Program-made: the position numbers and the translations under genes | Origin: Escherichia coli | Lineage (GTDB): Bacteria; Pseudomonadota; Gammaproteobacteria; Enterobacterales; Enterobacteriaceae | Length of the DNA stretch: 64,000 nucleotides | Direction: 5' to 3' (one strand) | Assembly: GCF_017348835.2 (NCBI RefSeq) | Contig: NZ_CP071375.1 | The notes under the pieces: model-generated | Told to the model about the DNA's origin: nothing | Seen by the model: only the letters and a program-made list of their open reading frames with translations | The model's database searches: none | In this document: in pieces, positions 10,175-14,651 of the stretch | Position numbering within the stretch: the stretch's first letter is position 1 | Layout: each line of letters opens with the position of its first letter

Positions 10175-10348
10175 TTAAATCTCCCACGGTGCCTTCGGGA
10201 TGTCTGGCGTAGATTCAGCAACCTGGCGCAAGAGTTCTGCTTTAAGTATCTCGAGATTATGGATCGCAGAGTGGTAATCGCCTGCCACAAGGATATCTAA
10301 CACAATATCAATACGTTCGGCAACGCGCTGGGCATCAAATTCAGACAT
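10175..10348 (-). CDS. yciZ: small protein YciZ (57 aa from MSEFDAQ start; ORF track extends to 10357)
   Basis: ORF track; remembered K-12 small gene between yciT and pdeR. Confidence 0.7.
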
Positions 10349-10495
10349 CAAGGACATCCTTATAGCAAAAGGGGGAAAATGAATAATGCAAAAATTGCCG
10401 CTAAAAGAGAAGTGTTTAACAGCAACGGCTAATTATCATCCGGGAATACGATATATAATGACGGAATATAGCGCTAAGTATATATATTCATCTAC

Positions 10496-12481
10496 TTATG
10501 CGCGCTTCAGATAGCGTTTATACCAGCGTTCGAAGGCGACGGCGGGCATCGGTTTGGCAAACAAAAATCCTTGCCGCTCATTGATCCCATTCTTGGTTAA
10601 AAAAGCATCTTCCTTTGCACTCTCTACACCTTCGGCGATCACCTGAAGATTCAATGCCTGGGCCACAGCGACGATTGCCCGAACCAGTGACTGCGAGACA
10701 GGTTGTTTGTGAATATCTCGAACAAAAACCTGGTCAAGTTTAATCGCATCGATCGGAAAGCGCGCCAGTTGCGAAAGTGAAGAGTAGCCGGTACCAAAAT
10801 CATCCAGATGCACTTGCGCACCTAATTGGCTAAATTGTTGAATAACAGACAGTGCCAGCACATCATTCTCAATCAGGCAGCTCTCCGTCAGTTCAACATC
10901 AATAGGGCAGTATTCAAAATTGAGTTCCTGGAGAACCTGTTTCAGGGAGGTGAAAATGGTTTGATCTGCGAGCTGACGTGCAGAAATATTTACCGCCACT
11001 CGCAGGTTAATACCTTTATCCCGCCACTTTGCCACCTGGCGTACGACATCGAGAATCACCCAACGGCCTAAAGGCACAATTAGCCCTGACTCTTCGGCGT
11101 AGGAAATGAAGTCCAACGGTGGAATCAACCCACGTTCAGGTGACTGCCAACGTACTAGTGCTTCCAGACTGCGCACTTCGCCACGCCAGGTGATTTTCGG
11201 TTGATAGTGAATAACCAACTGATCGTTTTCCAATGCTTTACGCAAGTTGGTATCCAGCCAGAGATATTCAAATACCCGCTGATTCATTTCTGGAGTAAAA
11301 ACGCAAAATTGTCCTCGTCCGCCTTCCTTCGCTGTGTACATTGCTGTGTCGGCGTGACGAATAATAGCCGCGCTGTCCGAACCATGTTCGGGAGAGAGTG
11401 AAATACCCACTGAACAGCTGGTATAAACTTCAATTAAACCAATACGAAAGGGGAGGCGTAAGCGGGTCAAAATTCGTGATGCCATTGCTTCCAGCGCGCT
11501 TTGTGAGGTATTGGATGCGAGTACCAGAAACTCATCGCCACCCGGACGCGCCAACACCTGGTCATGTTCGAGACAGCTTAAAATGGCCAATGACACGTCG
11601 CGTAATAACTGGTCACCAAATAAATGCCCATAGGCGTCGTTGACCTTTTTAAAATTATCCAAATCAAGATACACAACCCCAACTTTATTGTTATCTGCAT
11701 GATTAATAGCGTGATCGATTAACTCCTGCATTGCGTTACGATTCGGCAGTCCGGTGATACTGTCGGTATTTGCCAGAATACGCAGTCGCTCCTGAGCGCG
11801 GCGCTCTTCGGTAATGTCGGTGCCGGAACAGATTAAAAAAATCTCGTTTTTGCCACTGCCGCTGTGGACAAATTTATTGCGAAACAGAAACAGCCGCTGG
11901 CCTTTACGTGTTGGTATCCACAGTTCGACTTCATATGCATTGCCGCTTCGAAAAAATACACGGTTATTGCGCCTGGATGCCGCAGCTTCACGACGGCTCA
12001 TAAACAGTTTAAACACGCTTTGCCCAATGACGTCGTGTTCTTTCAACCCTGTGTAATCTTCACATAACCGATTGAAGCGCTGGATATTCCCCCGGCTGTC
12101 GAGAATGACTATTGCGGAATGTGCTTCAGAAACTACCTGCTCAGCAAAGGAAAGCCCGTGTGATAAATCACGAGCAACTGCCGGTGTGTCATGCCATGCA
12201 GACGCGTTGCCAGCCCATTCCCGTTTATTGATTTTTCGTCCTACCAGATGCACAGAAAGATCGCTCTCATCGACGGTCAGACTCATCATCAGGCTGGAGG
12301 TGATGACCGTCATTTCCCTGATGCGAGCAGCCTGTTCGGCAGATAACTGCAACGTACGTTCAGGTTCTGTGGTTTCGGTGGTAGAAAAGCGCAAAACATC
12401 GCTGCTTTCCGTCAACCGCCAGTATGGATTGTGCGATCCGAGAAAGTTGTACAACGTTGTGGACTCCCTAACGGTTTTCAT
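10496..12481 (-). CDS. pdeR: c-di-GMP phosphodiesterase PdeR (Gmr/YciR), PAS-GGDEF-EAL (661 aa)
   Basis: GGDEF motif (RPGGDEFLVL) and EAL motif (SLEALVRW) both present. Confidence 0.93.
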   Translation of the reverse strand: MKTVRESTTLYNFLGSHNPYWRLTESSDVLRFSTTETTEPERTLQLSAEQAARIREMTVITSSLMMSLTVDESDLSVHLVGRKINKREWAGNASAWHDTPAVARDLSHGLSFAEQVVSEAHSAIVILDSRGNIQRFNRLCEDYTGLKEHDVIGQSVFKLFMSRREAAASRRNNRVFFRSGNAYEVELWIPTRKGQRLFLFRNKFVHSGSGKNEIFLICSGTDITEERRAQERLRILANTDSITGLPNRNAMQELIDHAINHADNNKVGVVYLDLDNFKKVNDAYGHLFGDQLLRDVSLAILSCLEHDQVLARPGGDEFLVLASNTSQSALEAMASRILTRLRLPFRIGLIEVYTSCSVGISLSPEHGSDSAAIIRHADTAMYTAKEGGRGQFCVFTPEMNQRVFEYLWLDTNLRKALENDQLVIHYQPKITWRGEVRSLEALVRWQSPERGLIPPLDFISYAEESGLIVPLGRWVILDVVRQVAKWRDKGINLRVAVNISARQLADQTIFTSLKQVLQELNFEYCPIDVELTESCLIENDVLALSVIQQFSQLGAQVHLDDFGTGYSSLSQLARFPIDAIKLDQVFVRDIHKQPVSQSLVRAIVAVAQALNLQVIAEGVESAKEDAFLTKNGINERQGFLFAKPMPAVAFERWYKRYLKRA

Positions 12482-12681
12482 GATGCATATCCTCCGGTTA
12501 ACTGCGGAGTCCGCGGTTAAATAAAAGGAACAACATGACTTACATGAAATTAACGGCGGCTAAACGCATTGTTTTTTTTATATATTTATTTGTAATCCAG
12601 TTTTGGAAAAACGCCAGTTTTCAAACGAAAGTCAGTTAAAAAATCTGCCTGGATATAACGAAGGTAGAGCGGGGAAATAAA

Positions 12682-12707
12682 CGGCCCATCCATGAGGAAT
12701 GGGCCGT
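12682..12707 (-). terminator. stem-loop immediately downstream of rnb stop (CGGCCCAT...ATGGGCCG)
   Basis: 8-bp inverted repeat with 10-nt loop, about 10 nt after rnb stop on the minus strand. Confidence 0.4.
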
Positions 12708-12716
12708 GAAAGGAGA

Positions 12717-14651
12717 TTACGCGACCGGGCGCGCAATAATGCTGCGGGTTTCCATGCGGACTTCGGCAATGGTGACGTCAATAACGTCAGTTACTTTGTA
12801 AACCGTTTCACCTTTAATTTGTACAGTGCCGTTTTCCTGGCTGCAAACCAGTTCATCGCGCACAGCGTGTAAGAAAGGTGCCGGAATAAAGGCGATAGCG
12901 CCGTTATCAACCAAACGAACACGCATGCCGCCACGGCTGATATCGACAATTTCCGCTGCGAAACGGGTGTCGGTCCCGGCTTTGTCTTTCAGGAAGCGTG
13001 CGTATAACCAGTCACCAACATCACGTTCTGCCATCCGGTTGAGACGGCGACGCTCGGCCATTTGCACAGTGATTTCATCCTGTGGACGCGTCGCAGTTTC
13101 GCCTTTGATAACCGCTTTCAGCAGACGGTGGTTGATCATGTCGCCATATTTACGGATCGGCGAAGTCCAGGTGGCGTATGCTTCCAGACCGAGGCCAAAG
13201 TGAGGACCGGGTTCAGTGCTAATTTCAGCAAATGACTGGAAGCGACGAATGCGGCTGTCGAGGAAACCAGTTGGTTGCGCATCCAGTTCACGACGCAGTT
13301 TGCAGAAACCGTCCAGCGTGAGCACTTCTTCGGCATCGACATGCAGACCGTGCGTTTTCAGCAACGCTGCCAGCGCGTCGGCATTCGCCGGATCAAAGCC
13401 CATATGCACGTTATAGATGCCAAAACCGAGCTTATCGCGCAGTACGCGGGCCGCACAAATATTAGCGGCGATCATCGCTTCTTCGACGATACGGTTGGCA
13501 ATGCGACGAGGCTCGGCGACGATATCCAGCACTTCACCTTTTTCACCGAGAATAAAGCGGTAATCCGGGCGATCTTTAAACACCAGTGCGTGGTTATGAC
13601 GCCACTCGCCGCGTCGTTGGCAAATTTGCGCTAGCAAACGGACTTGTTCGGCAATTGCTTCACTTTCAGGCTGCCAGTCACCGGTATTTTCCAGCCAGTC
13701 AGAAACCTGGTCATACACCAGCTTCGCTTTGGATTCGATGGTGGCGGCAAAGAATTCGATATTATCTTCAATGGTGCCATCAGCGGAGAGCGTCATGCGG
13801 CATGCCAGTACCGGGCGGACTTCATTGGCGCGCAGTGAGCAGAGATCGTCAGAAAGCTCGCGAGGCAGCATAGGGATGTTGAAGCCAGGCAGATAGTTGG
13901 TGAATGCGCGAATTTTCGCGGCTTTGTCCAGTTTGCTGCCTTCAGCAATCCACGCGGTTGGATCGGCAATCGCCACAATCAGCTGAAGTTTGTCATCCGG
14001 CAACGCCTTAGCGAAAAGGGCGTCATCCATATCTTCTGTGCTGGCACTGTCGATGGTGACAAAATCCAGCGCGGTCAGATCTTCACGAACCAGACCTTCA
14101 TCGAGCATTTCGGTAGCGACGCCGTCTGGTGCTTCTTTTTCCAGATTATGGCGCGCAAGTGTAACCCACCACGGTACAAAGTGGTCGTCACCAAAAGTGA
14201 TGTATTGTGTCAGTTCAGCATAGAAAGAACGATCGCCTTTCAGCGGATGGCGGCGCATTTCGGCAACCGCCCAGTCGCCTTCTTTAAACTCGTGGTTCAG
14301 GCCACGGGCTGCGCGGCAAGGAATGGCGTCTTTTAAGAGTGGATGATCAGGAACGATGGCCAGACGGTCATTTTTGCCCTGAACTTTACCCACGAAACGA
14401 GTCAGGAACGGTTCAACCAGTTCTTCTGGCTCTGCGGATTCACGTTCTTTTTCACTGTGGATCACCGCGATAATTCGGTCGCCATGCATGACTTTTTTCA
14501 TCTGCGGCGGCGGAATGAAATAACTTTTTTGCGCGTCGACTTCCAGGAAGCCAAAGCCTTTTTCTGTGGCTTTTACCACCCCTTCAGCGCGTGGCGTCTG
14601 GGAATGCAGTTGCTGTTTAAGCTGCGCTAGCAGCGGGTTGTCCTGAAACAT
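12717..14651 (-). CDS. rnb: exoribonuclease II (644 aa)
   Basis: full-length ORF; RNB catalytic and C-terminal S1 domain sequence recognised. Confidence 0.97.

Follow-up and report, generated by a model that had tools for sequence, protein, structure and literature searches.

One described class that bears comparison with the reading frame considered here is that of the experimentally supported E. coli small membrane proteins of 50 amino acids or fewer, such as AcrZ, YohP, and MgtS, from the Hemm and Storz literature. The frame resembles these proteins in its size class, in having a Shine-Dalgarno-like motif ahead of an ATG, and in its hydrophobic center with basic flanks. It differs from them in that the hydrophobic stretch is 13 residues long, the frame is kept in only part of Escherichia, no codon-position signature is present, and natural pseudogenization is frequent. 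A second comparison is with the spurious open reading frames (ORFs) found on AT-rich promoter DNA. It is like these in its flat conservation over codon positions, with a peak in an AT-rich block, but unlike other incidental promoter ORFs, it has a gene name and has been spread by annotation pipelines via protein homology.

That gene is ymiB (b4672, "putative protein YmiB") of E. coli K-12, and the ORF is thus already known. It was analyzed here in a 64,000-nucleotide stretch of E. coli DNA (the window, to which all positions refer), where it lies between rnb and pdeR; the latter encodes the trigger enzyme of the curli/c-di-GMP switch. In K-12 MG1655, NC_000913.3 1346796–1346900 is annotated as ymiB, and tblastn gave 100% identity over 34 amino acids, with pdeR and rnb as the flanking genes. 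The 34-amino-acid sequence, the position, and the strand are the same in both, with no difference in the gene; the only base of the spacer that differs between the window and K-12 (12503, T versus A, respectively) is outside the ORF. Database entries for ymiB are UniProt YMIB_ECOLI and RefSeq YP_002791239.1/WP_000221855.1, the UniRef name is "Putative protein YmiB", and the curated label is still "putative". The gene is said to belong to a batch named after work by Hemm and colleagues in 2008 that used comparative genomics and a ribosome-binding-site model. Tagged small proteins were reportedly detected by immunoblot in that work, and K-12 translates YmiB if it was among those detected.

In the accessible literature, ymiB appears only in gene lists from transposon, sRNA-deletion, and Tn-seq studies. 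A transposon-sequencing study placed it in the "essential only by TraDIS" set (few insertions), with an EcoCyc-derived label of "Putative protein", as opposed to "Small protein" for yobI and yqeL (PMC5821084). In an RNA-seq study of an sRNA deletion, it was among four genes that were expressed at low levels and altered, and in a Tn-seq screen it was a hit without follow-up.

The features of the locus are given below, with the basis for each assignment in parentheses.

12535–12639, + strand: 34-codon ORF, ymiB (100% identical to K-12; PGAP WP_000221855.1, "hypothetical protein", in other strains).

12525–12530, + strand: AAGGAA, the Shine-Dalgarno-like motif of the ORF, which reads UUCCUU on the pdeR strand (sequence; fold).

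12498–12520, no strand assigned: near-palindrome of 23 nt (10/11 arm match; shuffling p about 0.007).

12479–12495, − strand: pdeR start codon (12479–12481) and GGAGGA Shine-Dalgarno sequence (12490–12495) (sequence).

12556–12600, − strand: nearly invariant AT-rich block, CTGGATTACAAATAAATATATAAAAAAAACAATGCGTTTAGCC on the pdeR strand (column identity; register with Enterobacter promoter).

12572–12579, + strand: T8 homopolymer run, polymorphic (T6, T7, T8, T9) in E. coli (haplotypes; T7 in E. albertii).

12598–12600, + strand: codon 22, CAG, replaced in the O157:H7 lineage by a TAG stop that accompanies G12566A (R11H) (exact haplotype, 315 records).

12681–12707, − strand: rnb intrinsic terminator, whose perfect 9-bp stem leads into a T-rich tail, at the far boundary of the spacer (computed).

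10496–12481, − strand: pdeR, flanking gene.

12717–14651, − strand: rnb, flanking gene.

The pdeR-rnb spacer is 235 nt long with 40% G+C. As an earlier, sequence-only reading had described, the 34-codon frame is oriented opposite to both flanking genes; it runs from the ATG at 12535 to a TAA ending at 12639, and its product in the window is MTYMKLTAAKRIVFFIYLFVIQFWKNASFQTKVS. The AAGGAA motif that had been placed 5 nt before the ATG is indeed there, with a gap of 4 nt, or 5 nt when counted from the last A of the motif, and so is the near-palindrome upstream of it.

The ORF by itself is not unusual. When the 235-nt spacer was shuffled 5,000 times and either strand was considered, a complete ATG-initiated ORF of at least 34 codons was obtained in 28% of the shuffles, or 54% if GTG and TTG starts were allowed. 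The same spacer contains a second ATG-initiated ORF of 35 codons (12586–12693, − strand), antisense to the 3′ half of ymiB, which indicates that ORFs of this size arise freely here.

A hydrophobic core had also been claimed for the peptide. An uncharged hydrophobic run is present, but it spans just 13 residues (I12–W24; mean Kyte-Doolittle score, 2.4), between R11 and K25. The best 19-residue window takes in K10 and R11, with a mean score of 1.55, and the longest uncharged run, at 13 residues, falls short of the uninterrupted segment of about 18–20 residues that spans a bilayer. No Pfam or NCBIfam profile matched YmiB at E values up to 10 in either library. An exhaustive phmmer search of 1.84 billion protein representatives returned only five related small clusters, all of them Escherichia-type variants, of which one is a fragment, one a fusion artifact, and one extended at the C terminus by a frameshift.

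Conservation of the locus was assessed with a PdeR scan at one genome per species, which returned 80 loci. In the Enterobacteriaceae loci of this set, about 40 in number (Escherichia, Citrobacter, Salmonella, Enterobacter, Kosakonia, and others), rnb is directly upstream of pdeR, and a clear YmiB-like translation was found only in Escherichia. Even within this genus the frame varies: the homologous ORF has 34 amino acids with a different C terminus in a cryptic-lineage Escherichia genome (L004), 40 amino acids through loss of the stop codon in E. whittamii, and 19 amino acids through a frameshift in the T-run (T7) in E. albertii. It has 27 amino acids in Salmonella diarizonae. In Citrobacter, starts (GTG or ATG), stops, and lengths (19–50 amino acids) vary, and the homologous ORF is absent at two loci; in about 25 further Enterobacteriaceae loci, no ORF similarity was detected despite rnb-pdeR synteny. 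Conservation of the frame across Escherichia and Salmonella, the comparison that the sequence-only reading had proposed as a check, was not found: E. albertii is frameshifted, and neither the start nor the stop is conserved in Citrobacter or Salmonella.

The substitutions carry no coding signature. In a 14-taxon alignment, variable columns at codon positions 1, 2, and 3 numbered 21, 22, and 19 of 35 each, respectively, and within Escherichia they numbered 7, 3, and 6; neither comparison revealed a third-position excess or purifying selection on the protein. Nonsynonymous to synonymous changes relative to E. coli were 2:1 in the cryptic lineage, 6:1 in E. whittamii, 1:0 in E. albertii (before the frameshift), and 18:2 in Salmonella. 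The ymiB ATG is invariant in all 14 aligned taxa, with an AAGG motif upstream in Escherichia, and the CATG at the ymiB start does not vary between genera, including those without the ORF.

Within E. coli, the locus was found in 5,422 of 5,426 complete genomes and was absent from four. Seven matches to this chromosomal spacer sit on records labeled as plasmids. Haplotypes were counted in 5,423 E. coli records with exact 90–91-nt queries over positions 12540–12630. The intact haplotype identical to the window accounted for 3,710 records (68.4%). The T7 run combined with G12566A was present in 1,020 records (18.8%), including the type strain DSM 30083 and Nissle 1917, and yields a 19-amino-acid product, MTYMKLTAAKHIVFLYIYL. 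The O157:H7 haplotype, R11H with a stop at Q22, was present in 315 records (5.8%), and T7 without the SNP in 185 records (3.4%), including ATCC 8739 and O145 RM9872; by subtraction, about 193 records (3.6%) carried other haplotypes. Sporadic alleles include T9 (CP53 and PRO_A-1443), T6 (an O121 strain), and the missense change N26K. Any T-run length other than 8 shifts the ymiB frame. In all, at least 1,520 of the 5,423 records (28%), from at least three independent lineages, have a disrupted frame. The truncated alleles retain the same start, and broken alleles are marked by PGAP as "frameshifted" or "incomplete" pseudogenes. In an evenly spaced sample of E. coli, identity to the window was at least 97.8% over 91 bases in every full-length row.

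A sequencing artifact cannot account for the T7 allele, given its linkage to a SNP, its fixation in more than a thousand genomes, and its presence in well-finished reference strains. T7 arose independently in E. albertii; in Citrobacter and Salmonella the run is still 8 nt long, in most cases as TTTTATTT. The run at 12572–12579 may belong to the pdeR promoter or start region and be sensitive there to changes in spacing. In strain 17MR471, an ISApl1 (IS30-like) element is inserted after the T-run (L095, 817–1791), at about window position 12579/12580; it splits the ymiB ORF and separates the conserved block from pdeR, and pdeR expression might change in this strain.

The sequence-only reading had named disruption of the frame in close relatives, with the nucleotide sequence conserved, as the pattern that would speak against a coding role, and exactly this pattern was found: E. 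albertii shows it, as do at least 28% of E. coli genomes. In all likelihood, the ORF is a side product of the promoter and leader of pdeR. The alternative that it is a small membrane protein, which that reading had also offered, is unsupported given the 13-residue hydrophobic run, the absence of any sign of purifying selection on the protein, and the frequent breakage of the frame. A gene for a type I toxin-like small hydrophobic peptide would likewise be short, hydrophobic, and located in an intergenic spacer, as ymiB is. However, ymiB is single copy, has no cognate sRNA family or protein family match, encodes a hydrophobic stretch of only 13 residues, lacks a long structured 5′ UTR of its own, and decays freely in natural strains. 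We rejected the toxin reading on the grounds of the single copy, the missing partner RNA, and the decaying frame, and give it almost no credence.

It is also conceivable that YmiB exists as a small membrane peptide of recent origin and narrow lineage range, which emerged de novo in Escherichia antisense to the pdeR promoter and is translated in K-12-type strains, dispensable, and repeatedly lost. The Shine-Dalgarno-like motif 4–5 nt from the ATG fits this idea, as do the intact allele in 68% of E. coli and in the cryptic Escherichia lineage, the 40-amino-acid version in E. whittamii, and the strong hydrophobicity of the 13-residue segment; tagged YmiB may have been among the proteins detected in 2008, and this too would favor it. 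A young peptide nevertheless sits poorly with the missing signature of purifying selection and with the frameshifts and premature stops borne by at least 28% of genomes, those of the type strain, Nissle 1917, and O157:H7 among them. A canonical membrane-spanning helix would need a longer uncharged segment than the peptide has, the + strand yielded no promoter-like site, expression is reported to be low, and curators still use the label "putative". On balance, we regard a young peptide as unlikely, albeit with some chance of being correct. Also unlikely is a proposal in which YmiB is translated, having emerged de novo in Escherichia from DNA antisense to the pdeR promoter, and segregates as a presence/absence polymorphism, and/or in which the length of the T6–T9 run, adjacent to the putative pdeR start site, tunes PdeR, and hence the curli/biofilm switch, by lineage. 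If this were true, the run-length tuning of PdeR would differ among the type strain/Nissle 1917 lineage, O157:H7, and K-12-like lineages.

The scarcity of transposon insertions in ymiB is hard to square with naturally broken alleles in at least 28% of E. coli; it is probably caused by the shortness of the gene or by local DNA properties rather than by a need for the peptide.

Conservation across the aligned taxa peaks in a 45-bp block at 12556–12600, where column identity is 0.91–0.95, compared with 0.84–0.87 for the first pdeR codons. This block encodes ORF residues 8–22, most of the hydrophobic core included, and all three ymiB codon positions are essentially invariant within it; the conservation is non-periodic. 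The motif AAACA[AG] was found 70–175 nt upstream of pdeR in 31 of 39 Enterobacteriaceae loci; the background rate available, 0.011 per 70 nt, is for the one-base-longer AAAACA[AG]. A common layout upstream of pdeR consists of CTTTTY, about 13–16 nt, TTAC, a hexamer, an A-run, and CA[AG]T..GTTCA. In an Enterobacter locus with no ymiB-like ORF (L023), the sequence upstream of pdeR is TTTTCA-N16-TATAAT...AAAAACAAT..GTTCA, which is a near-consensus promoter, and a second locus (L019) resembles it. The register of the E. coli block matches that of the Enterobacter sequence, with TTAC on TTAC and the A8 run on the A-run, which suggests that 12556–12600 comprises the pdeR core promoter and start-site region. 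A consensus scan for sigma-70-type promoters at a threshold of at least 9/12 matches found no site on either strand of the E. coli spacer, and several weak −10 candidates are present in E. coli, for example TATAAA at 12582–12577. No mapped transcription start of pdeR (yciR) was found in the accessible literature. Of the two explanations offered by the sequence-only reading, the favored one is an AT-rich promoter region in which a frame is open by chance, since the conserved core is non-periodic and recurs ahead of pdeR in genera without the ORF.

We consider it probable that ymiB is no functional protein gene and that its frame is open by chance where it covers the 5′ leader and promoter of pdeR, which lies downstream in the opposite orientation. 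The AT-rich DNA is T-rich on the + strand, and T-rich codons, TTT, ATT, TTA, and GTT among them, specify F, I, L, V, and Y and so supply hydrophobic residues; a pdeR promoter at this position would thus explain the apparent hydrophobic core of the peptide. The AAGGAA "ribosome-binding site" is in turn the complement of UUCCUU in the pdeR leader, the predicted partner of the pdeR GGAGGA. Selection would then keep the DNA and not the reading frame. Several points count against an incidental ORF: the ATG is invariant in 14 taxa, 68% of E. coli have an intact allele, few transposon insertions are recovered, and tagged YmiB may have been detected in the 2008 work. A further such point is that the promoter was assigned by cross-genus comparison, the scan of the E. 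coli spacer having found no sigma-70-type site.

ymiB is propagated as a coding sequence in thousands of E. coli annotations, yet it evolves like non-coding control DNA, and the annotation pipeline itself flags it as a pseudogene in over a quarter of complete genomes; it is therefore best treated as doubtful in small-protein catalogs. The conserved block and the leader palindrome, on the other hand, point to sites for pdeR regulation.

The palindrome, TTAACTGCGGA-G-TCCGCGGTTAA (12498–12520), was confirmed by script to have arms of 5 + 5 around one mismatch. An inverted repeat of such quality occurred in 0.7% of spacer shuffles, so the palindrome is more than chance. Among the E. coli strains fetched, differences were restricted to the mismatch position, 12503, and the opposite base, 12515. 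Position 12503 is T in the window and A in K-12 and the other fetched E. coli, and position 12515 is G, or A in LI60C3, the single T7 + G12566A strain examined at this position. The palindrome is not conserved in Citrobacter or Salmonella; it is a real Escherichia-level element.

When the pdeR strand from 12565 to 12470 was folded as RNA, the minimum free energy was −23.6 kcal/mol (z = −2.1). In the predicted fold, the pdeR 5′ leader has a hairpin made by the palindrome beside the pdeR Shine-Dalgarno sequence, UUCCUU (the complement of AAGGAA) pairs with the pdeR GGAGGA, and UCAUG, complementary to the ymiB start, is paired close to the pdeR AUG. The leader pairs are kept in six Escherichia sequences, with the CC/GG pairs invariant; across all pairs, only invariance or one-sided changes were seen, and no compensatory changes were found among the six. 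RNAalifold predicted no pairs for a cross-genus leader structure. No Rfam match reached the gathering score, and the two sub-threshold hits both fell on the rnb terminator. Plausibly, judging from the predicted fold, the palindrome acts as a translational-control hairpin in the pdeR leader, or else as a protein-binding site or operator.

The position of ymiB, wholly antisense to the inferred pdeR leader and promoter, raises a further alternative: the + strand might be transcribed as an antisense RNA, and this transcript, its transcription, or its translation might modulate pdeR, the sequence of the peptide being irrelevant. The CATG of the start region, invariant across genera whether or not the ORF is kept, and the shared start of the truncated ymiB alleles are in line with this. 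A scan of the spacer, however, found neither a promoter-like site nor a downstream terminator on the + strand, there is no Rfam family, and expression is reported only as "low". CATG is, moreover, self-complementary, and its invariance is equally explicable on the pdeR strand. We therefore consider antisense regulation very unlikely, and the incidental frame over the pdeR promoter and leader remains our preferred explanation.

Two minor observations concern the surroundings. In Citrobacter and Salmonella, an inverted repeat, AGCCAT...ATGGCT, is found close to the inferred 5′ end of the pdeR leader (L006–L016, at about 2925–2960); Escherichia has unrelated sequence at this position, and the repeat may be a different leader hairpin. 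At the other end of pdeR, a 42-codon ORF at window positions 10386–10514 (+ strand) is the annotated gene ymiD (b4772, "protein YmiD"), which overlaps the pdeR 3′ end on the opposite strand, and yciZ lies just past it at about 10175–10348 (− strand).
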